Shown: one piece after another, positions 7,021-21,777 of the stretch | Numbering within the stretch: the stretch's first letter is position 1 | Layout of the letters: the number at the start of each line of letters is the position of its first letter | Source: Trueperaceae bacterium | GTDB taxonomy: Bacteria > Deinococcota > Deinococci > Deinococcales > Trueperaceae | Direction: 5' to 3' | Assembly (NCBI GenBank): GCA_965213705.1 | Contig: OZ243913.1 | Span: forward strand, 3,968,001 to 4,032,000 | DNA: 64,000 bases | The notes under the pieces: model-generated | Seen by the model: the letters and a program-made list of their open reading frames with translations, nothing else | Told to the model about the DNA's origin: nothing | The model's database searches: none | Position numbers and translations under genes: made by a program

Positions 7021-7515
7021 GTGATTGTTTTGCTGATGGGCGTGTCGGGCTCGGGCAAGACGACGGTGGGCGGCCTGCTCGCCGCGCGTTTGGGCTGGCC
7101 TTTTTTCGACGCCGACGAGTTTCACCCGCAGGCCAACATCGCCAAAATGGCCCGCGGCACCCCCCTGACCGACAAAGACCGGCAGCCCTGGCTGCAGGCG
7201 ATTCGGGCCAAGATGGACGCCCTGGAAGCCCAGGGCCGCTCGGCCGTGCTGAGCAGTTCGGCCCTCAAACAGGCCTACCGCGACCTGCTCTTGGGCGGTG
7301 ACGACGGCGTCAAGCTCGTCTACCTAAAAGGAAGTTACGACCTCTTGAAAGACAGGCTCGAGGCGCGCGAGCAGCACTTTTTCAAGCTCGAACTTCTCGC
7401 GAGCCAGTTCGAAGCGTTGGAAGAACCCCAAAACGCCCTGGTCGTCACGGTGGACAAAAGCCCCGCCGCCATTGTGGAGGCAGTTTTAGAGGCGCTCGAG
7501 CTGTACACAGCCTAA
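7021..7515 (+). CDS. gntK: Gluconokinase
   Basis: MGVSGSGKTT P-loop, DADEFHPQANIAKMARGTPLTDKDR, SALK..YR. Confidence 0.92.
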   Translation: MIVLLMGVSGSGKTTVGGLLAARLGWPFFDADEFHPQANIAKMARGTPLTDKDRQPWLQAIRAKMDALEAQGRSAVLSSSALKQAYRDLLLGGDDGVKLVYLKGSYDLLKDRLEAREQHFFKLELLASQFEALEEPQNALVVTVDKSPAAIVEAVLEALELYTA

Positions 7516-7566
7516 AATCACACAACCTAAATAGAGCATCGACAGAGCCCAGTCTCAGGAGCCGCC

Positions 7567-8019
7567 CTAGTCTTTTTCGCCGGCAGCTTCGCTCAGTTTG
7601 TGCCGCAGGCCGTGCAAGGTCTCTACAAGTTGTTGGGCCTCGGGTGCGGACAAGTCCAGCGCACAGGCCAGGGCCTCGGGTATGTCGCTTGCGCGCTTTT
7701 GCAGGGCTCTTCCCGCAGGGGTCAACGAGATGACGACGCGCCGCTCGTCTTGGTCGTCGCGCCGGCGTTTGACGAGACCGGCACTTTCCAAGCGCTTCAG
7801 CAGCGGCGTCATAGTGCCCGAGTCGAGACCGAGGCGGGTGCCCAGCGCCGCGACCATGAGGCCGTCTTGTTCCCACAACGCCAGCATCGTAATGTACTGC
7901 GGATAAGTCAAGCCGAGCGCTTTGAGAAGCGGCCGGTAAAAGCGCGTCACCGCGTTGGACGTCGCGTAGAGCGCGAAGCAAAGCTGGTCGTCGAGCTTGG
8001 TAGAAGCGGATGTCGACAT
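7567..8019 (-). CDS. ohrR: MarR family regulator (OhrR-like)
   Basis: LDDQLCFALY with the redox Cys, LTYPQY, LDSGTMTPLLKRLE. Confidence 0.85.
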   Translation of the reverse strand: MSTSASTKLDDQLCFALYATSNAVTRFYRPLLKALGLTYPQYITMLALWEQDGLMVAALGTRLGLDSGTMTPLLKRLESAGLVKRRRDDQDERRVVISLTPAGRALQKRASDIPEALACALDLSAPEAQQLVETLHGLRHKLSEAAGEKD

Positions 8020-8704: not shown

Positions 8705-9664
8705 TTACGAAGCGTCCAGCACCCCCCGCGCCGCCACGTCGTCGGTGACGAGCACGTCGGCGTAACCGCCGCGCAACGCGCCGCCGAGCGCCGCTGTCTT
8801 AGCCGCGCCCCCCGCGACGACCACGACGGTCGGAATCGCTTTCAGGGCGTCTAAGCCGATAGTCACGGCCCGTTCGTTGACGCCCGCCGCCACGGGACGT
8901 CCGTTTGGACCGTAGAACTGCGCGCAGACGTGGCCGGTCGCGCCGGCTTTTTTGAGTCGTCCCAAGTCTTTTTTGCTCAAGTAACCCTTAAAAATGAGGC
9001 CGGAGGCGTCGGCGGTCAGCGGGCCGACGCCGGTGAGTACGATATCGGCCTTTTTCGCCGTTTGGATGAGGTCTTTCACAAGCGGTTCTTGCAGCAACCG
9101 GTCGCGCGTCTCCGCGCTCTCGACCATCAGCGGGGCGTGCAAGTAGCGGTAGGTCGCCGAATACTTGTTGGCGAGCTGGCGCGCTAAGTCGGGGCCGTCT
9201 TGCAGCGGGTTCCCCGAGCCGAGCGCGCCGATGATTTGCAGCACGGTCAGGTCTTTGAGCGGGCGCGGCGCGACTTGGCTTACGGTGCTGGCGAGCGAGC
9301 GGCCGTAAGACACGCCGAGCACCAGGCCGCTGCGGATGACGCCTCCCAAGTAACGTGCCGCTAAGTAACCCAACCCGTCTATGGTCTCGGCTTCGGTGCG
9401 CCCGTCGGAGCGGAGCACGAACCCCTGCTCCAAGCTGAAAGCATTTTTGAGGTCGCGCTCCAAGGCACTGTCGCGCACCCACTTGTACTGAATGGTTATT
9501 TTGACGACGCCCTTATCTCGAGCCTCTTTCAGCAGCCTCGAGACCGTCGAGCGCGAGGTTTGGAGTTGCCGCCCGATTTGCGCCTGGGTCAGTTGCTCTT
9601 CGTAGTACAACTTGGCGACTTCGACCAGCAAGCCGGTGTCGTCGTCGGAGGGTGGGTTGTTCAT
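8705..9664 (-). CDS. SorC/DeoR family sugar-binding transcriptional regulator
   Basis: VAKLYYEEQLTQAQIG...SRSTVSRLL HTH plus sugar-binding domain ending LVTD. Confidence 0.92.
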   Translation of the reverse strand: MNNPPSDDDTGLLVEVAKLYYEEQLTQAQIGRQLQTSRSTVSRLLKEARDKGVVKITIQYKWVRDSALERDLKNAFSLEQGFVLRSDGRTEAETIDGLGYLAARYLGGVIRSGLVLGVSYGRSLASTVSQVAPRPLKDLTVLQIIGALGSGNPLQDGPDLARQLANKYSATYRYLHAPLMVESAETRDRLLQEPLVKDLIQTAKKADIVLTGVGPLTADASGLIFKGYLSKKDLGRLKKAGATGHVCAQFYGPNGRPVAAGVNERAVTIGLDALKAIPTVVVVAGGAAKTAALGGALRGGYADVLVTDDVAARGVLDAS

Positions 9665-9700
9665 GCGCTTGTGGGTCTCCAGTCGTGAGCTTACAGGTTC

Positions 9701-9763
9701 TTTGCACACCTGTGCAAAAGGTTGCACCCTTGTGTTGACCGAGTTTACACCGCGTGATACGTT
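9701..9763 (+). promoter_or_regulatory. Operator palindrome(s) and sigma70 promoter of the ulaG operon
   Basis: Perfect TTTGCACA-cc-TGTGCAAA (9701-9718), degenerate copy at 9721-9738; TTGACC (9735)-17 nt-TACGTT (9758) with extended TG. Confidence 0.75.
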
Positions 9764-9853
9764 TTGGTAACAAACAATCTTTTTCGCCCGCACCGGCCGT
9801 AAAGTGCCGTAGGTACGTCGCGGACGAGCCCTGAATAGCAAGGAGCCGCAAGG

Positions 9854-10918
9854 TTGAGCAAAGTCAACGAACTGACGAGAGAAAACTGGATACTGAGCAC
9901 CTTCCCCGAATGGGGCACCTGGCTCAACGAAGAAATTGAGGCCGAGACCGTTTCCCCCGGCACCTTTGCGATGTGGTGGCTCGGCTGCACCGGTATCTGG
10001 CTCAAGACCGAGGGCGGCGCGAACCTTTGCTTCGACCTGTGGGTGGGCAGCGGCAAGCGTTCGCAAAAGCTGCCCGACATGACCCCCGACCACCAGCACC
10101 GCCGCGCCATCGGCGCGGTGCAGATTCAGCCGAACCTGCGCAACGCGCCCTGCGTGCTGGACCCCTTCGCGATTCGCGAAATCGACGCGGTGCTCGCCAC
10201 CCACCACCACAGCGACCACATCGACGTGAACGTGGCGGCGGCGGTCGTGCAAAACTGCGGCCCGCACGTGCAGTTTATCGGGCCTGAGACCTGCACCGAC
10301 CTGTGGAAAAAGTGGGGCGTACCCGAGGAGAGGTGCGTGACGGTGCGACCGGGCGACAGCGTGACGGTCAAGGACACGGAAGTTATAGCGCTCGAGTCCT
10401 TCGACCGCACCGTGCTCGTGACCGCGCCCAAAGGCGTCGTGTTGAAAGACCAACCTGTCCAGGACATGGACCGGTCGGCGGTGAACTACCTCGTGAAAAC
10501 CCCCGGCGGCAGCCTATACCACGGCGGCGACTCGCACTACTCGAATTGGTACGCCAAGCACGGCCAGGACTTTTCTATCGACGTGGCGCTGGGCTCGTTC
10601 GGCGACAACCCCGTCGGCATGACCGACAAAATGACTTCCGTAGACCTGCTTAAGATGGCCGAGAGTTTGCAAGCGCAAGTGGTTATCCCCGTTCACCACG
10701 ACATTTGGAGCAATTTTCAGGCCGACACCAACGAGATTTTGGTGCTCTGGAACATGCGCAAACACCGGCACAAGTACGCGTTCAAACCCTTCATCTGGCA
10801 AGTCGGTGGTAAGTTCACCTATCCAGCCGACAAGGACGCGTTGCAGTTCAACTACCGGCGCGGTTTCGAAGACGCTTTTACGAGCGAGCCCGATTTACCG
10901 TTCAAGGCGCTGCTCTAG
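9854..10918 (+). CDS. ulaG: L-ascorbate-6-phosphate lactonase
   Basis: Signature N-terminus [53 protein letters not shown]. Confidence 0.93.
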
Positions 10919-11032
10919 CAGGTTTCATCAGGGAAGTTTTTTCATCAGGGAAGTTCCCGGCAGCCCCCCGCCGGTAGCTACAAAGGAGAAAGTCGTGACC
11001 AAAGTTCTAGCCGTTCTAGCAAAGGAGAACAA

Positions 11033-12367
11033 ATGAAAAGTGTTCGCATTTTAGGCTTGCTGCTCTTAGCGACGTTGGGTTTGTCGTTTGCACAGCCCTA
11101 CGCAGACTATGAAGGCACGACCATCGTCGTGAGCTGGCCCGCCCTGGGTCACTTCGAGGCGGCCGCCACGCTCATCCCACAGTTCACCGAGGAAACGGGC
11201 ATCGAGGTCGAACTCGATCTAACCCAATACCTCAACATGAAAGACCGCCAAATCACCGAGATTTCCAAACCCGGCTCGGGTGACTTAGACGTGGTTTCGT
11301 GGGTGGTGTTTACCAAAAACGAGTACGTGGCGAACCAGTGGCTCGAGCCCCTGGCCCCCTACCTCAACAACCCGCGACTCACCATGCCCGACTACGACAT
11401 TGCCGACATCGTCCCCGCCTACCTCACCAACGGCGGCAAGTCCGGCGGGCGCAAGGGTTACTTAGAAGGTCCCGGCGCGTCGCTCTACGGCATCCCGTTC
11501 AGCCCCGAGACGAGCATCCTGGCCTACCGCACCGACATCTTCGACGAGTACGACTTAGAAGTTCCTACGACCTACGACGAACTGCTTGAGACCGCGCAGT
11601 TCATCACTGATAACGTACCCGGCGTCTACGGCATGACCACGCGCGGCTCGGCCGGGCACCAGGTCGTCCACGCCTGGCTGCTACACCTGTCGCCCCTGGG
11701 CGGCACCGTGCTGGACGACAACTACAACCCCGTCGTGAACTCGCCCGAGGCGATTCAGGCGGTCGAGACGCTGCAGACGATTCTCGAGAACTCCCCTCCC
11801 GGTGCCGAAGCGAACGGCGCGGGCGAGCAGGACGCGGCGTTTTTACAAGGTGATTCCGCCATGTACTTAGACCGCATGGCAATCGCGCCGATGGTCTCGA
11901 ACCCGGAAGTCTCCAACGTCGTCGGCAAAGTCGGCTACGCGCTCCACCCCACCGCCGCGACCTGCGGCAGTGAGACGGGGGGCTTTGCAATGGGCATTCC
12001 CTCGAACTCGCAAAACAAAGAAGCCGCGTGGCTCTTCATCCAGTGGTTTACGAGCAAGATGGGCGACCGGATGATTGTCGACGCGGGCGGTAACCCCATG
12101 CGCATGTCGACCCTCGCCGACCCCGAACTGCAAGCCGCGCACCCCGAGTTCCCGGTCGTCTTGGAGCAGCTGGAGTGCGCCAACGCCGACTGGCGGCCCC
12201 TCATCCCCGAGTGGCCCGCGATGAACGCGCCGATTTTGGGTGAAGAGATTTCAGCCGCGCTCACCGGCCAAAAGAGCATCGAAGACGCGATGAACTCCGC
12301 CAACGACCGCCTGCGCGAACTCCTCGACCGCGCCGGTTACTACAGCTGGGGCTCGAGCCAACAATAA
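11033..12367 (+). CDS. Sugar ABC transporter substrate-binding protein (CUT1)
   Basis: Signal peptide, FTEETGIEV, YRTDIF, NKEAAWLFIQW. Confidence 0.92.
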   Translation: MKSVRILGLLLLATLGLSFAQPYADYEGTTIVVSWPALGHFEAAATLIPQFTEETGIEVELDLTQYLNMKDRQITEISKPGSGDLDVVSWVVFTKNEYVANQWLEPLAPYLNNPRLTMPDYDIADIVPAYLTNGGKSGGRKGYLEGPGASLYGIPFSPETSILAYRTDIFDEYDLEVPTTYDELLETAQFITDNVPGVYGMTTRGSAGHQVVHAWLLHLSPLGGTVLDDNYNPVVNSPEAIQAVETLQTILENSPPGAEANGAGEQDAAFLQGDSAMYLDRMAIAPMVSNPEVSNVVGKVGYALHPTAATCGSETGGFAMGIPSNSQNKEAAWLFIQWFTSKMGDRMIVDAGGNPMRMSTLADPELQAAHPEFPVVLEQLECANADWRPLIPEWPAMNAPILGEEISAALTGQKSIEDAMNSANDRLRELLDRAGYYSWGSSQQ

Positions 12368-12378
12368 ACTCTAAAAAG

Positions 12379-12501
12379 TCCCCCTTTGAGGGGGATTTAG
12401 GGGGTCTCACCGAGTCTCAAAGCTTGAAAGACCCCCACCTGAACACCCCGGCTCGAGTGAGACCCCTCCGCCCTGCGGGCACCTCCCCTCAAAGGGGAGG
12501 T
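12379..12501. repeat. Inverted pair of REP-like elements between SBP and permease
   Basis: tccccctttgagggggatttagggggtctcac ... gtgagacccctccgccctgcgggcacctcccctcaaaggggaggt. Confidence 0.75.
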
Positions 12502-12551
12502 CAAAAATTTCTCGGGCCTCCCCTTTATTGAGAGCACGTTGAGAGAATATT

Positions 12552-13460
12552 ATGCGCACGAACAGAGCCGTCCCCTATCTTTTTTTACTTCCCGCCGTCG
12601 CCATCCTGGTGCTCGGCCTCATGGTGCCGCTCTACAACTCGCTGGTGCTCAGTTTCTACGACTGGAACTTTGGGCAGGCGTGGGCGGACAAGGATTATTT
12701 GGGCTTTCAAAATTTCCGCCGTCTCCTCACCGACCCGGTCGTGTGGGCGTCGGTGCGCACGACGTTTATATTTGGTTTTTGGGTCGTGCTGTTGGAGATG
12801 ATTATCGGCGTCGGGCTGGCGCTGCTTTTAGAAAAGCCGGTGCGCGGGGCGTCGTTCTTTCGGACCATCTTCGTGCTGCCGCTGATGATTGCGCCCATCG
12901 TAGTGGGCCTCGTGTGGCGCTACCTGCTCGACGCGCGCAACGGAGTCATCAACTATTATCTCGAGGCCGTCGGCAACGCCCTCCCCTTTTTGCAAAACCT
13001 CGGTTTCGACAGACAGGAATGGCTCGCCAAACCCGACCTGGCGATGCTCTCAATCGTCGTCAGCGACGTGTGGCAGTGGACGCCGTTCATTTTTATGATT
13101 GCGCTGGCCGGGTTGCAAGGTTTGCCGAGCAACATCGTCGAGGCGTCGCACATCGACGGGGCGAACTGGTGGCAGATGACCTGGAACATCAAACTGCCGA
13201 TGATGCGCAACATCCTCCTCATCGCGCTGCTGATGCGAATTATCGACGTGTTCCGGGCGCTCGAAGTCATCTACATCATGACCAACGGCGGGCCGGGCGC
13301 TTCGACACGGGTGCTGTCGCTGCTGCTTTTCCAAACCGCCTTCACCTCGCAAGACCTGGGCTACGCCGCGACGATTGCGGTGCTGCTGAGCGTTATCTTA
13401 ATCGTGCTCAGCGTGCTGCTGATGCTCTACAACAACCCGCTGAAAGACCGGGCGGTCTAG
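12552..13460 (+). CDS. Carbohydrate ABC transporter permease
   Basis: Multiple TM segments; EAA loop (EASHIDGANWWQ). Confidence 0.93.
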   Translation: MRTNRAVPYLFLLPAVAILVLGLMVPLYNSLVLSFYDWNFGQAWADKDYLGFQNFRRLLTDPVVWASVRTTFIFGFWVVLLEMIIGVGLALLLEKPVRGASFFRTIFVLPLMIAPIVVGLVWRYLLDARNGVINYYLEAVGNALPFLQNLGFDRQEWLAKPDLAMLSIVVSDVWQWTPFIFMIALAGLQGLPSNIVEASHIDGANWWQMTWNIKLPMMRNILLIALLMRIIDVFRALEVIYIMTNGGPGASTRVLSLLLFQTAFTSQDLGYAATIAVLLSVILIVLSVLLMLYNNPLKDRAV

Positions 13461-14399
13461 GTGCAGCAGACCGTCCAACGCGGCTTGGAAAAGCGCGAAC
13501 AGAAGGCGCGCAACGCCCCCGTCAAAAGCGGTGACGTATGGCGCTACATTGCACTGGTAACCCTGGCGCTCGTCACGCTCGCGCCTATTTTTGTGATGTT
13601 CGCGACCTCACTCAAACTTCCCGTGGAGATTCAGTCTCGAGTTCCCCGCTGGATTTTCATGCCCACGGTGAGCAACTATACCGAAGTCATCACGCAGTAC
13701 CGGATGATTCCCTACCTCGTCTCGTCGCTCGTCATCGCGTTGGGTTCGACCTTTTTCACGCTTCTCACGGCGGGCATGGCGGCGTTTGCGCTGGCGCGGA
13801 TGCGCTTTCCGGGGCGCGGAATAATCGCGCAGACGACGCTCGTGATTCGCATGATTCCCCCGGCGGTCATCGCGGTGGCGGTCATCGGTTTCTGGATTTC
13901 GTGGAACATCAGCGACGTTTCCGAAGGCGTGCGTTTCAACTTACCCAACGGCCTCGGGCGAGGCGACCTGTTCGACGGCTCGCAACTCGGGCTGATGCTG
14001 TTTTACACGGCGCTCAACCTGCCCTTTTCGGTGTGGCTGCTGTTCGGCTTCATCCAGCAGATTCCGGTGGAGTTGGAAGAGGCGGCCATCGTCGATGGCG
14101 CGAACCTGCTGCAAGTCTTGTTCCGCGTGATTTTCCCGCTCATGGGCGGCGGCTTCGCGGTCTCGGCGATTTTTACCTTTCGCATCGCCTGGAACGAGTT
14201 CATCCTGGCGCTCTTTTTGACAAGTCGCTACACCAAAACGCTGCCCGTGTTCGCGTCGGAATTTATCCGCGACGACGGTGTGCTCTGGGGCCAGATGATG
14301 GCGGTCGGCAGCCTCATCGCCATTCCGCCCCTCATCATCACCTTTTTCGCCGCCAAGCAGATTATTGCGGGAATGACGGCGGGGGCGGTGAAGGGGTAG
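13461..14399 (+). CDS. Carbohydrate ABC transporter permease
   Basis: EEAAIVDGA EAA loop; ends GMTAGAVKG. Confidence 0.93.
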   Translation: MQQTVQRGLEKREQKARNAPVKSGDVWRYIALVTLALVTLAPIFVMFATSLKLPVEIQSRVPRWIFMPTVSNYTEVITQYRMIPYLVSSLVIALGSTFFTLLTAGMAAFALARMRFPGRGIIAQTTLVIRMIPPAVIAVAVIGFWISWNISDVSEGVRFNLPNGLGRGDLFDGSQLGLMLFYTALNLPFSVWLLFGFIQQIPVELEEAAIVDGANLLQVLFRVIFPLMGGGFAVSAIFTFRIAWNEFILALFLTSRYTKTLPVFASEFIRDDGVLWGQMMAVGSLIAIPPLIITFFAAKQIIAGMTAGAVKG

Positions 14400-14408
14400 G
14401 GCAAACCC

Positions 14409-14450
14409 GACCCCTCAGTCTCTTCGAGCCAGCTCCCCTAAAAAGGGAGC
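14409..14450. repeat. REP-like element copy
   Basis: gacccctc...gctcccctaaaaagggagc. Confidence 0.65.
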
Positions 14451-14528
14451 CAAGAGAGTACGGCCAGTTTGATTATCCTCACTCGTATCTGTCATCGGAA
14501 AAGACCAAATAATCCCTGAAGGGACACC

Positions 14529-15188
14529 ATGAAACCCAAACTCCAGCTCGCTCTCGACATGTTCGACCTGCCCGCGGCACTCTCACCTCTGCAAAAAGCT
14601 CACAAACACATCGACATCGTCGAGTGCGGGACGATTCTTTGTTTGTCGGAGGGGATGCACGCGGTGCGGGCGGTAAAGAGTTTGTTCCCGGACAAAATCG
14701 TCCTCGCCGACGTGCGGATTGCCGAGGCGGGGGGCATCATTTCCAAAATGTGTTTCGACGCTGGAGCCGATTGGGTGACGGTGGTGAGCGGCGCGGCCCC
14801 GGCGAGTGCGGAGGTCGTCTTAAAAGAAGCGCGGAGTCGTGGGCGGGACATGCAAATCGAACTCAGCGACGGTTGGACGTGGGACCAGGTCGAGCACTGG
14901 CGCGCTCTCGGCGTGGGCCAAATCATCACCAAACGCAGCCGCGACGGCGAGGCCAAGGGCGAGTTGAGCTGGCAAGACGGCGACCTGAAAACCGTTCAGC
15001 GGTTGCACGACATGGGTTACAAGGTCTCGGTGGCGGGCGGCGTGACCGCTGAGGACGTGGCGCGGTTCGAGGGTGTGCCGGTCTACGCCTTTATCGTCGG
15101 GCGGGCGATTTACGGCGCGGACGACCCGGCGGGGGCGGCTGAAACTTTTCAGGAAGCCGTTTCTAAAACCTACGGCGCGGCGGTCTAG
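14529..15188 (+). CDS. ulaD: 3-keto-L-gulonate-6-phosphate decarboxylase (OMPDC/HPS superfamily)
   Basis: PKLQLALD, IVECGTILCLSEGMHAVR, GADWVTV, RSRD, FIVGRAI; in the ulaG operon. Confidence 0.85.
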   Translation: MKPKLQLALDMFDLPAALSPLQKAHKHIDIVECGTILCLSEGMHAVRAVKSLFPDKIVLADVRIAEAGGIISKMCFDAGADWVTVVSGAAPASAEVVLKEARSRGRDMQIELSDGWTWDQVEHWRALGVGQIITKRSRDGEAKGELSWQDGDLKTVQRLHDMGYKVSVAGGVTAEDVARFEGVPVYAFIVGRAIYGADDPAGAAETFQEAVSKTYGAAV

Positions 15189-15301
15189 CGTGCGCGGCGA
15201 CGAGAAACCGGGACTCGAGCCTTCATCCCCGCACCCGAAGCGTTAGGCTGAGGCGTGTGTAAGGTGATTTTCCTTCACGTTTTACCGGACGTGCCCTGAC
15301 C

Positions 15302-16261
15302 ATGCCCCGCTTCGACGTCACCACCATCGGCGAGGGGCAACTGCGGCTTTGCGTCCCGGCGGGGACGCGGCTCGAGCAGGCCAGACAGTTCGACGTTCAC
15401 ACCTCCGGCACCGAGGCTAATGTCACTTGCACGCTGTCGCGTTTGGGCTGGAGTTGCGGCTGGGTGAGCGCCCTGCCGGACACGCCCCTGGGCCGCCGCG
15501 TGGCGGGCGAGTACCGCTTTACCGGCCTGGACCTAACAGCCGTGAAATGGTCGCACGACCACCGCTTGGCAACCTACTACGTCGAGTATGCGGTGCCGCC
15601 CCGCTCGACGCAAGTGTATTACGACCGGGCGGGCACCTGTTTTACACAACTCACAGTCAGGGACATCGACTGGGATTACTTGCTCGACACACGGTTGCTG
15701 CACCTTTCAGGTTTGAGCATGGCGCTTTGCACCAACATTCAAGAGGTGTTGACCGAGGCGGCCGCGCGTGCGAAGGCGGCGGGCGTGCCGGTCAGCTTCG
15801 ACATGAACTACCGCAGCCGTTTGTGGGCGCCGCAGCGGGCGAGGGACTTGACCGAGCCGCTGGTGCGCAACGTGGATGTTCTTTTTTGTGGGCGCGCCGA
15901 CGCCGCACAGGTGTTCGGTTGCAGGGGTACACCCCAGGAAATGGTCGCGCAACTGGGTCAGCTGACCGACGCCCGGTACATCGTCATGAGCATGTCACAC
16001 GAAGGGTTGATGGGCTGGGACGGCCACACCTACAGCCACGTGCCCGCTCGAGACGTCGTCATCCTAGACCGGATAGGCGCAGGCGACGCGATGGTGGCGG
16101 GCGTGCTGCACGGCTACCTGCAGGGCGAGTTCACCAAGGGTTTGGAGTACGGCGCGCTGACCGCCGCGCTTTCCTTGAGCCAGTACGGCGACCAGCCGGT
16201 GACGAACCGTCAAGAGTTGGAGCAGTTGCTGGTGCGGGGCGGCGGCGACATCGTCCGCTAA
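15302..16261 (+). CDS. PfkB family sugar(-acid) kinase, KDG-kinase-like
   Basis: GTEANV, SFDMNYRSRLW, DRIGAGDAM PfkB signature. Confidence 0.9.
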   Translation: MPRFDVTTIGEGQLRLCVPAGTRLEQARQFDVHTSGTEANVTCTLSRLGWSCGWVSALPDTPLGRRVAGEYRFTGLDLTAVKWSHDHRLATYYVEYAVPPRSTQVYYDRAGTCFTQLTVRDIDWDYLLDTRLLHLSGLSMALCTNIQEVLTEAAARAKAAGVPVSFDMNYRSRLWAPQRARDLTEPLVRNVDVLFCGRADAAQVFGCRGTPQEMVAQLGQLTDARYIVMSMSHEGLMGWDGHTYSHVPARDVVILDRIGAGDAMVAGVLHGYLQGEFTKGLEYGALTAALSLSQYGDQPVTNRQELEQLLVRGGGDIVR

Positions 16262-18586: not shown

Positions 18587-19342
18587 TCAGGCGCTCACCC
18601 CCGGCATCTTGCCCAAAATAATCATGCCCAGCACCTCGTCCTTGGTCACGTCCTCGGTGCGCACCGTCCCGACTAAGTGGCCGTTGTGCAACACCGTGAT
18701 GCGGTCACACAGGTCGAACACGTCGTGGATGTCGTGGCTGATTAAAAAGATGCCTATGCCTTCGCGCTTCAGGCCCTTAATGAGCTGGCCGACCTTCTCG
18801 GTCTCCTGCGGCCCGAGCGCGGCGGTGGGCTCGTCCATGATGAGAATTCGTGCGTTGAAGTAAATCGCCCGCCCGATGGCGATGGCTTGCCGCTGCCCGC
18901 CCGAGAGGTTGCGCACGTTGTCGCTCAGGGACTTTATTTTGAGGTCCAGGCGGTCCAAAACTTTGCGCGCCTCGGCCTCCATGCGGTCGTCGTCGACGGT
19001 GCCGAACGGCGTCATGAGTTCGCGGCCCAAAAAGACGTTCGCGGGCGCGGGCAGGTTCTCGGCCAACGCGAGTTGCTGGTAGATGGTTTCGATGCCCTGC
19101 GCCTTGGCGTCGCGCGGGCTGCGGATGGTGACCGGCTGGCCGTTCACGAACACTTCGCCCGCGTCGGCCTGGTAAGCCCCGGAGAGAATTTTGATAAGCG
19201 TGGACTTGCCCGCGCCGTTGTGGCCGAGCAGGCCCACCACCTCGTCGGGGTAGAGGTCTATCGAGACGCGCTCGAGGGCGTGCAGACCGCCGAACGACTT
19301 GGAGATGTTGCGCATTTCGATTAAGGGCGTCACGCCAGCCAC
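18587..19342 (-). CDS. Sugar ABC transporter ATPase (xylose-type, single domain)
   Basis: [19 protein letters not shown]. Confidence 0.93.
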
Positions 19343-19343
19343 C

Positions 19344-20636
19344 TCAACCCTCCGTCAAACCGCTGCGGCGGCGGTAAAGCACGTCGAGCCACACCGCGAC
19401 GATGAGGACCAGCCCGATGATGACCTGGATGAGCGAGCTGTTCAGGTTTAGAAGCACCATCCCGCTCTGCAGGCTTTGCATAAACACCGCGCCGATAATC
19501 GCCCCCACGACCGTGCCGTAACCCCCGGCGAGCGAGGTGCCGCCGATAACCGCCGCCGCGATGACGTACAGCTCGGTCAGGGTCCCGGTCGAGTTCACGC
19601 CCGAGTTGAGGCGCGCCGTCGCGACCGCCCCGGCGAGAGCGCTCAACACGCCGATGAGCATAAACACGTACAGCGTCATGCGCTTGGTGTCGATGCCCGC
19701 GAGCTGCGCCGCTTCGGGGCTGCCGCCCATCGCGTAGACGTAGCGCCCGAACTTCGTCAGCCGCGCGACGCCGGTCATGAGGAGTGCCACGCCGATGAGG
19801 ACGAGCACGGGAATGGGTATCCCCTGCGCGATTTCGGTGCGCGGCCGGTTGTAGGCGTTCATGATGAGGACGAAGCCCGCCACCGCCGCAACGGCCGCCA
19901 AGCCGACCAGCACTTCGGCCCAGAGAGGCCGCACCGGGAAACCGAGCCGGGCGCGTTTGCCGCGCGTCTGAAAAGCGAGTAAGACGATGGCTAGAATAGC
20001 CGCCAAGCCGACCATCCAACTCCAAAACGCGCCGATGGAACCGTTCAGGCCGCCGCCCAAAAGTTGGAAGTTGCTGTCCAAAGGCGCGACGGTACGCCCT
20101 TGCGTCAGCAACCACGCGCCGCCCCTAAAAATAAGCAAACCCGCTAAAGTGACGATAAATGAGGGAATAAGTTGGTAAGCTATCCAATAGCCCTGAAACG
20201 CCCCGATGAGCGCGCCCGCCAGCAAACCCAGCGCGAGGGCGGCGAGCCAGTTCCAACCCCCGGCCGGCAGGGCTTGCGTTTGCAGCACCGCCATGATCAT
20301 TCCCGTAAAGCCCAGCACCGACCCCACCGACAAGTCGATGTGGCGCATCACGATGACGAAGACCATGCCGGTCGCGATAATGCCCACCACGCTCGTCTGG
20401 ACGGCCAAGTTCCAGAGGTTGCGCGGCGACAAAAAGCCGGTGCCGAAAAACTCGCCTACTGAACCGATAGAAATGTCGTTCTTAAAAATAAACGCGACGT
20501 GAAAACCGAGCCAGAGCAGCAGCAGCACGCCGACCATGCCAAGGAGTCGCACGTCTATCTCGAGCATCCTCAAAAACCCCGGCAGCCCGCCGCCGGAGGT
20601 TTTTTTGATGTTGACCTTGGTTTGAGACGTCGCCAT
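19344..20636 (-). CDS. xylH: Xylose-type ABC permease
   Basis: [34 protein letters not shown]. Confidence 0.88.
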
Positions 20637-20693
20637 AGCTTTCCCTTCGCGCAACCCGAGTTGTAAAAGAGGCCGTACCGGAGCAAGAATACC

Positions 20694-20729
20694 AAAAAAG
20701 CCGGACGCTGACGACGCCAGCGTCCGGCT
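20694..20729 (-). terminator. Intra-operon terminator or stabilising hairpin after xylF
   Basis: 12-bp stem agccggacgctg/cagcgtccggct followed by a U-run on the minus strand. Confidence 0.75.
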
Positions 20730-20745
20730 CGAACTCAAACCCTAC

Positions 20746-21777
20746 TTACTGACAAGCGGCCGGGGCGTCGGCGCTGCTCGCGTCCACGCCGGCACACAGG
20801 TCTGCTTGAGAAATCCAATTCGCGTCGATAACGACGTCTAAGTTGTCCCTGGTGACCGGGATGGGGGCCAGCAGGATGGCGTTCATGTCCATGCCCTTGG
20901 GGCCGTTGCTGAAGGTCGTCGCGCCTTCGACTGCGTCTACGGCGGTGCCTTGGGCTAAGGCCATCGCGATTTCAGCGGCGGCCGTGCCGAGCGCGCGCGA
21001 GTCTTTAAACACCGACACCGTTTGGGTGCCGAGCGCGACGCGGTTGAGCGCGGCCTGGTCGGCGTCTTGACCCGACACGGGCACTTGGCCCGCCAAGCCC
21101 TGCGAGGCGAGCGCGGCAATCGCGCCGCCCGCGGTGCCGTCGTTCGAGGCGACGACCGCGTCGACGTCGTTGTTGTTAGCGGTTAAGATTTGCTCCATGT
21201 TGCGCTGCGCGTTTTCAGGCAACCAACCGTCGGTGTACTGGTCGCCCACAATCGTAATGTCCCCTGCGTCGATGGCGGGTTGCAGGACCTCGAGCTGACC
21301 GCCGTTCAAAAAGTCGGCGTTCGGGTCCTGGGCGCTGCCCTTGATAAACACGTAGTTGCCGGTCGGTTGCGCCTCGAGAATGGCGCGAGCCTGCATCCGC
21401 CCGACCTCGACGTTGTCGAACGTCAGGTAGAACACGTCGTCGGCTTCGATGAGCCGGTCGTAGGCGAGAACCGGAATGCCTTGCGCCTGCGCCGAGGCGA
21501 CGGCGGGCAAAATGGCGTCGGCGTCCTGGGCCAGCACTATCAACGCTTCCGCGCCCTGGGTGATGAGGCTCTCGATGTCGGAGAGTTGCTTCTCGACCGA
21601 ACTCTGCGCGTCGGCGCTGATGTAACGACCGCCCAACTCTTCGATTTTCGCTTTGATAGCGGCTTCGTCGGTTTTCCAGCGCTCTTCTTGAAAGTTCGAC
21701 CAGCTCACGCCGATAGTCTGCGCGGCGGCGACGCTGAACAGCAGGGCAACCAACATCATCAAACCTAGCTTTTTCAT
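20746..21777 (-). CDS. xylF: D-xylose ABC transporter substrate-binding protein
   Basis: [39 protein letters not shown]. Confidence 0.88.

Follow-up and report, generated by a model that had tools for sequence, protein, structure and literature searches.

A phosphotransferase-free Ula-type operon with a candidate ascorbate kinase in a Trueperaceae genome

A 64,000-nucleotide stretch of the genome of a Trueperaceae bacterium (the window; G000:C1:3968001–4032000) carries a seven-gene operon in which ulaG and ulaD accompany genes for an ATP-binding cassette (ABC) importer and a PfkB-family kinase. The source is a one-contig genome of 4.25 Mb, 98% complete; hereafter, G-numbers denote genomes, with G000 being that of the window, and L-numbers denote the loci examined. 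Comparison with related loci suggests that the operon probably encodes a Ula-type route free of the phosphotransferase system (PTS) and fed by ATP-dependent phosphorylation of L-ascorbate or of a closely related compound. In the proposed route, a CUT1-type ABC importer, probably energized by a shared MalK-type ATPase encoded elsewhere, would import an unphosphorylated hex-2-enono-1,4-lactone, most likely L-ascorbate. The PfkB enzyme would phosphorylate the lactone at C6 with ATP and replace the UlaABC PTS, as suggested by the complementarity of the gene sets. UlaG would then open the ring to yield a 3-keto-hexonate 6-phosphate, consistent with the function of its family and its conserved residues, and the UlaD-like enzyme, with Arg64 and Glu67 at its catalytic site (E. 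coli numbering), would decarboxylate this product to a pentulose 5-phosphate, an activity predicted from its fold and metal ligands. In most relatives, UlaE and UlaF would complete the route to D-xylulose 5-phosphate. The final step appears incomplete in the genome of the window, where AraD could stand in for UlaF and a UlaE orthologue was not found.

The gene set was compared across 128 loci, comprising the window, 31 loci from genomes, 16 from a family survey, and the best 80 of 479 metagenome matches, with some duplicates among them. Position 64 of UlaD is Arg in 86 loci and Lys in 42. A pfkB gene is present in 59 of the 61 Arg64 loci with at least 2.8 kb of downstream sequence (the exceptions are L086 and L090) versus none of the 42 Lys64 loci, 39 of which carry PTS genes. 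Since the later enzymes all need a terminal phosphate and the kinase occurs exactly where the PTS does not, PfkB appears to be the PTS replacement. Among the loci with a CUT1-type importer, a set that includes the window and some duplicates, pfkB is found in all 33 with at least 2.8 kb downstream, while ulaG and sorC are each found in 25 of the 26 with at least 7 kb upstream, which indicates that the arrangement did not arise by chance. The same 33 loci contain ulaE in 26 cases and ulaF in 25, and the L009 genes pass the NCBIfam cut-offs. The recurring core module comprises SorC, a lactonase of the UlaG or phosphotriesterase (PTE) type, an Arg64 UlaD, UlaE, UlaF, and a PfkB protein resembling 2-keto-3-deoxygluconate (KDG) kinases. 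The importer varies (CUT1, MFS, DppA-type, CUT2, or TTT-like) while the kinase stays. The module is found in Trueperaceae, Chloroflexota, Spirochaetes, Actinomycetota, and Proteobacteria with a patchy spread; 19 of the 121 genomes of the family contain a full-length match of at least 60% identity, and UlaG scores above the cut-off in 3 of 301 genomes of one Chloroflexota class. This neighbourhood survey of PTS-less relatives had been proposed in a preliminary description of the stretch, and it shows that a kinase-bearing, PTS-free module recurs in related loci. The PTS-independent pathway variant put forward there is supported by these comparative data; its alternative, a different sugar acid, is retained for the window copy, which has no UlaE orthologue.

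The gene content also bears on the nature of the substrate. A lactonase, a β-keto-acid decarboxylase, and two pentulose-phosphate epimerases without a redox enzyme imply a substrate that is already as oxidized as ascorbate. Recurring oxidoreductase clusters are absent from the CUT1-type loci, and the lack of a recurrent dehydrogenase led to the rejection of a polyol substrate. Among common natural compounds, L-ascorbate is the one that fits this established pathway logic (bioRxiv 10.1101/2020.09.08.288738).

The operon begins with ulaG (9854–10918, plus strand), which scores 626 bits against a cut-off of 306 for NF008688 and matches the structure 2wyl with an E-value of 7.5e-172. It continues on the same strand with a CUT1 solute-binding protein (SBP; 11033–12367, PF01547), whose best solved relatives are 5iai (2e-50) and 4rya, the latter labelled as a sorbitol binder (3e-35), and two PF00528 permeases of the MalF/UgpA type (permease 1, 12552–13460) and the MalG type (permease 2, 13461–14399). 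The UlaD-like decarboxylase (14529–15188) and the kinase (15302–16261) follow, and the SorC-type regulator gene (8705–9664) lies divergently on the minus strand. Profile matches and the intact reading frames of all seven genes confirm the order and strands given in the preliminary description. The nearest named relative is a Trueperaceae metagenome-assembled genome (MAG) of the same genus, with a UlaD that is 92% identical. The Chloroflexota operons L012, L014, L015, L017, L019, L020, L023, and L031 encode a tandem double-domain binding protein of about 890–990 residues.

An ascorbate PTS was sought in the whole genome. The UlaA-family profile PF03611 gave no match in G000, while the control was positive in 5 of 14 genomes, and tblastn with ulaA, ulaB, and ulaC gave none. 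Across the genomes with Arg64 loci, many of which are incomplete MAGs, PF03611 is found in 0 of 26, versus 4 of 4 with Lys64 loci. A UlaABC system elsewhere in the genome, which would have spoken against a PTS-independent pathway, was thus found neither in G000 nor in any of those 26 genomes. Of the enzyme I matches in G000, one resembles PEP synthase and the other is an HPr-EI fusion whose gene neighbours dhaK/dhaL-like genes, all named from their sequences. The fusion lies in L039 (8349–17662, at about 1.280–1.290 Mb of G000) with a dhaK-like gene, two dhaL-like genes, and a CUT1 ABC system with two ATPases, and is the only enzyme I found in the genome. L086 (3666–12473) is the only Arg64 locus with a PTS, represented by two EIIC genes; it contains a PTE lactonase and a HAD phosphatase and lacks the kinase.

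The window itself contains no match to ulaABC, ulaE, or ulaF, as had been stated, but the accompanying statement that it lacks an ABC ATPase does not hold. Such a gene occurs at 18587–19342, in a separate xylose-type CUT2 cluster (18587–21777, minus strand) that has a single-domain ATPase and a XylF protein scoring above its cut-off. In G000, about 30 permease clusters match permease 1 versus 7 strong MalK-type ATPases, and shared ATPases are known in this phylum. The MalK-type ATPase at G000:3629814–3630980 lies more than 8 kb from any such permease cluster and is a candidate for a shared ATPase that serves the CUT1 importer.

The kinase belongs to PF00294, and its closest solved structures are the KDG kinases 2afb, 4gm6, and 1v19, with which it has the motifs GxEANV, YDR, NYR, GAGD, and GD in common. 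Glu38, Asn40, Asp108, Arg109, Asn169, Arg171, and the GAGD motif are invariant in all 61 aligned copies. These top family and structure matches would suit an ordinary KDG kinase that adjoins ulaD by chance, but several results make this highly improbable. The protein scores below every KdgK cut-off (259 vs 440 bits for NF041332, its best match, and 53 vs 400 for another), tblastn searches of G000 found no match to Eda, UxuA, or UxaA, and the kinase is linked to ulaD, ulaE, or ulaF across several phyla. The distance from the pfkB match to the nearest upstream match to one of these three is at most 50 bp in 28 of 66 loci, below 100 bp in 43, and 792 bp at most. A separately transcribed, KDG-specific kinase, the objection raised in the preliminary description, is at odds with this picture; the enzyme is not a free-standing KdgK, its gene following immediately after ulaD/E/F in relatives.

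As judged from residue conservation, ring opening likely takes place on a phosphorylated lactone, after the kinase has acted. PTE lactonases, which are relatives of 3msr and match NF045706 below its cut-off, take the place of UlaG in some members of the Arg64 clade. Their five phosphate-ligand positions (R/K, K, Y, K/R, and Y/H) are kept in 25 of 25 proteins, in PTS- and kinase-linked loci alike; because these ligands are kept, the kinase probably acts on the lactone before ring opening. One kinase clade serves UlaG- and PTE-type loci, which are interleaved on a FastTree tree from which no support values were read. The UlaG of the window is about 67% identical to the enterobacterial protein, and the metal histidines and core basic residues, represented by His117, His119, His122, His223, His228, His281, and His282 together with Lys68, Arg96, Arg185, Lys259, and Arg336, are kept in 31 of 31 kinase-linked copies; 16 other positions differ between these and 27 PTS-linked copies. 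In the reverse order, UlaG would open free ascorbate and PfkB would phosphorylate 3-keto-L-gulonate at C6, as a non-homologous counterpart of E. coli LyxK, or, in a variant, would take 2-keto-L-gulonate. This order accords with the KDG kinases as the nearest solved structures and with consistent differences near the metal site of kinase-linked UlaGs (Asn120 to Ser, Gly, or Thr, and Thr97 mostly to Asn), but it appears unlikely in view of the phosphate ligands of the PTE partners, the single kinase clade for both lactonase types, and the core basic residues of UlaG. An ascorbate kinase and a 3-keto-gulonate kinase had both been suggested earlier for PfkB, and the comparative data favour the lactone (ascorbate) option.

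The UlaD of the window falls two bits short of the NF009832 cut-off (248 vs 250) and scores 212 vs 294 for NF009831. Its structural model (pLDDT 88) is a barrel of the orotidine 5′-monophosphate decarboxylase type and superimposes on the decarboxylase of 3-keto-L-gulonate 6-phosphate (KGPDC) with TM scores of 0.91–0.92 at 44–45% identity. Alignment with 1kv8 revealed that D-V-R-I-A-E replaces the canonical D-x-K-x-x-D motif, with Lys for His136 and Ala for Thr169. Glu33, Asp62, Asp11, Glu112, Arg139, and Arg192, residues with assigned roles in KGPDC, are all kept. A protein search gave 582 matches among 1856 candidates; among 120 listed homologues, all have Arg64 and Glu67, while Lys and His each occupy position 136 in 60 of them. 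The Arg64 enzymes form one clade (support 99 in a quick IQ-TREE search). A natural KGPDC with a rewritten catalytic motif offers a direct test of the roles of Lys64 and Asp67. Formaldehyde fixation by a 3-hexulose-6-phosphate synthase of the ribulose monophosphate (RuMP) pathway was rejected from the TIGR03128 score (139 vs 200) and the context; no recurring cluster resembling an RuMP isomerase was seen among loci L008–L038, the clusters being judged by eye and the genome not being searched for hxlB. In L033–L035, L062, L063, and L097, a UlaD subgroup has Arg64, Arg or Lys at position 67, and no Arg139, and it occurs with genes for, among others, a PTE lactonase, a TTT-like importer, a CobW-like GTPase, and, in L033, a split transketolase. 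In the Anaerolineae loci L036 and L038, the ulaD-like gene encodes D-V-K-x-P-D and Ala169 and has sorC and ulaE as neighbours, and a PfkB of the window's clade is missing.

Several observations weigh against the proposed route. The K64R, D67E, and H136K changes alter catalytic-site residues of UlaD and may affect its activity. The KDG-kinase pocket motifs kept in PfkB could suit an open-chain keto acid, and the nearest labelled structure of the SBP is a polyol binder. The assignment of the five phosphate-ligand positions in the PTE lactonases is presumptive, although they map onto the 3msr chain with a constant offset of 2. Most Lys64 loci come from enterobacteria that are almost identical to one another, and the Arg64 loci form a single clade; the counts therefore do not represent independent events, and few such events underlie the Arg64/PfkB pattern. 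The searches of G000 revealed no UlaE, which leaves L-xylulose 5-phosphate without a known exit. Furthermore, in the congeneric genome G062 (which corresponds to G001/L008), ulaD and pfkB remain (L008 7324–8901), but sorC, ulaG, the genes for the SBP and permease 1, and the 5′ portion of the permease 2 gene are gone. Since the front half of the operon was deleted there, decay is real in the genus of the window.

The epimerase gene is missing selectively. Among the 33 CUT1-type loci with sufficient flanks, 7 lack ulaE and 8 lack ulaF. UlaE was not found genome-wide in G000, G062, G033, G079, G010, or G016, the best protein in G000 reaching 72 bits against a cut-off of 272 at about 25% identity. 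UlaF/AraD is absent from G010 and G016 and occurs once each in G033, G079, and G068; G000 has no ulaF in the operon and encodes an AraD, 51% identical to the L009 UlaF, in an araBDA-like cluster. The 113-bp spacer at 15189–15301, which is the site of ulaE (and ulaF) in relatives, contains no terminator-like site in a scan and no ulaE remnant detectable with blastn or tblastx against L064 and L059. The UlaD tree, from a quick search, implies at least three separate ulaE losses. The ulaE-less copies are under purifying selection, with ratios of nonsynonymous to synonymous substitution (dN/dS, Nei–Gojobori) of 0.03–0.20, compared with about 0.01 to 0.38 in four pairs with ulaE. The best candidate for a UlaE substitute in G000, L003, was unmatched at 1e-25 in 15 genomes in a run without a positive control. 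Operator scans of the genomes gave no second regulon member, and since the operator is unique in G000, no co-regulated substitute is visible. This repeated, selective loss poses a question that a few enzyme assays could answer.

One tentative explanation is that the epimerase-less copies, including that of the window, have shifted to a D-erythro analogue such as D-erythorbate, which is compatible with the kinase mechanism; D-ribulose 5-phosphate would be formed, and UlaE and UlaF would not be needed. The six genomes without detectable UlaE and the separate losses on the UlaD tree fit such a shift, as do G010 and G016, which also lack UlaF/AraD yet show dN/dS values of 0.04–0.12. The loss is biased (ulaE is gone in 7 of 33 loci, pfkB in none of 33, and ulaG in 1 of 26), and no second operator points to a substitute gene. 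Ala169 is present in all 7 ulaE-less CUT1 loci, and T169A is one of the substitutions introduced into KGPDC variants whose crystals contain D-ribulose 5-phosphate (1xby, 1xbx). However, 26 Ala169 loci keep ulaE, two ulaE-less loci outside the CUT1 type have Thr169, and the other engineered positions, Glu112 and Arg139, are unchanged; about three events on a background covering about 40% of loci make the association weak. An unrelated epimerase could also substitute, given 12 PF01261 proteins in G000. The window copy may instead be a decaying remnant in which the route was broken when ulaE disappeared and the rest of the genes await deletion. The deletion in G062 speaks for such decay, as do an in-frame stop in the HAD gene of L061 and dN/dS values somewhat above those of two ulaE-bearing pairs (L009/L010 and L014/L031). 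We nevertheless judge decay improbable, because none of the seven frames is disrupted and the operator and promoter are likewise intact, the two other ulaE-bearing pairs exceed every ulaE-less pair in dN/dS, and the same gene was repeatedly removed first, unlike random decay. Catabolism of L-ascorbate with an unrecognised epimerase or another exit takes the rest of the probability for the window copy, a larger share than either of these two explanations. A bolder proposal, which we regard as speculative and unlikely to hold in full, is that the PfkB clade consists of ATP-dependent ascorbate 6-kinases and that Ala169 lineages were repeatedly re-tuned to a D-erythro ascorbate analogue of the erythorbate type, with a three-enzyme path to D-ribulose 5-phosphate without epimerases. 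If true, a second natural stereoisomer of ascorbate would have a catabolic route of its own. An erythroascorbate route via an RpiB-type isomerase found no support here, PF02502 being absent from G000 and present in 7 of 16 genomes tested. A HxpB-like HAD phosphatase recurs in the operon at L019, L061, L064, and L086.

The SorC/DeoR-family regulator has a sugar-binding domain (PF04198, 199 bits, above the cut-off; NF053881, 219 bits, below the cut-off of 420). It takes the place of UlaR, and no repressor of the UlaR (DeoR/GlpR) type was identified in the operon. An upstream alignment of seven loci revealed a palindromic candidate operator, TTGCACA-NN-TGTGCAA (9702–9717), through which SorC would repress the operon. 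The palindrome is present with at most two mismatches in 28 of 52 loci, is the sole site with at most one mismatch in the 4.25-Mb genome, and occurs once per genome in G033, G079, and G068. A candidate sigma-70 promoter, TTGACC-17 bp-TACGTT with a TG extension (9735–9763, plus strand), was read by eye; it is absent from the listing of a consensus promoter scan, and its –35 and –10 columns are conserved in the upstream alignment. G010, which lacks UlaE and UlaF, has two ulaG copies (G010:C1:756984 and G010:C2:87025), each near an operator site.

Functionally the operon resembles the Ula route, yet it falls outside the E. coli-type system (ulaG, ulaABCDEF, and ulaR): it has neither a PTS nor UlaR, the window copy also lacks UlaE, and its UlaD motif differs. 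Both have a UlaG-family lactonase and a UlaD-like decarboxylase, with UlaE and UlaF in most relatives, whereas the PTS is replaced here by a CUT1 ABC importer (MFS or others in relatives) plus PfkB, the regulator is of the SorC type, and the window UlaD carries Arg64 and Glu67. The E. coli yiaK-S (sgb) system likewise combines PTS-independent uptake, an ATP-dependent kinase, and a KGPDC/epimerase tail, according to bioRxiv 10.1101/2020.09.08.288738. That route, however, has a TRAP importer, the YiaK reductase, and the FGGY kinase LyxK and no lactonase, whereas the window operon has a lactonase and PfkB, no reductase, and no YiaK, TRAP, or FGGY gene in the cluster; tblastn with YiaK gave no match anywhere in G000. 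The Mycoplasma PTE-type ula operons (MS53_0025, PDB 3msr, NF045706) resemble part of the Arg64 clade in having a PTE lactonase in place of UlaG. In PMC4866288, such a protein is proposed from gene context as the missing UlaG in mycoplasmas, and the swine mycoplasma systems are proposed to use an ascorbate PTS, unlike the UlaG and kinase of the window. The KDG kinases of T. maritima (2afb) and T. thermophilus (1v19) and the family NF041332 share the PfkB fold and the pocket and GAGD motifs, but the window protein lies below the cut-offs and has no Entner–Doudoroff or hexuronate partners, with zero eda matches. In the literature consulted, UlaG is invariably associated with a PTS; in PMC3219644, ulaABCDEF accompanies every ulaG orthologue examined, and no word there begins with “ABC” or “kinase”. 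A search of the open-access literature found no description of an ABC/kinase ula operon and no paper with the phrase “ascorbate kinase”; since subscription journals lay outside its coverage, this is weak evidence of novelty. The operon is real and conserved, and as a variant of a known pathway it has probably not been described before. The family would extend ascorbate-type catabolism to lineages without an ascorbate PTS, with a concrete candidate for an ascorbate kinase, and annotation pipelines would overlook the route or label the kinase KdgK.

Two further features adjoin or interrupt the operon. A gluconokinase gene scoring above its cut-off and a MarR-like regulator gene, read from sequence, lie 5′ of it (7021–8019), and their linkage to the operon is not kept in distant relatives. 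The spacers after the SBP (12368–12551) and permease 2 (14400–14528) contain short hairpin repeats with 8 and 6 blastn matches genome-wide, respectively, each count including the spacer itself.

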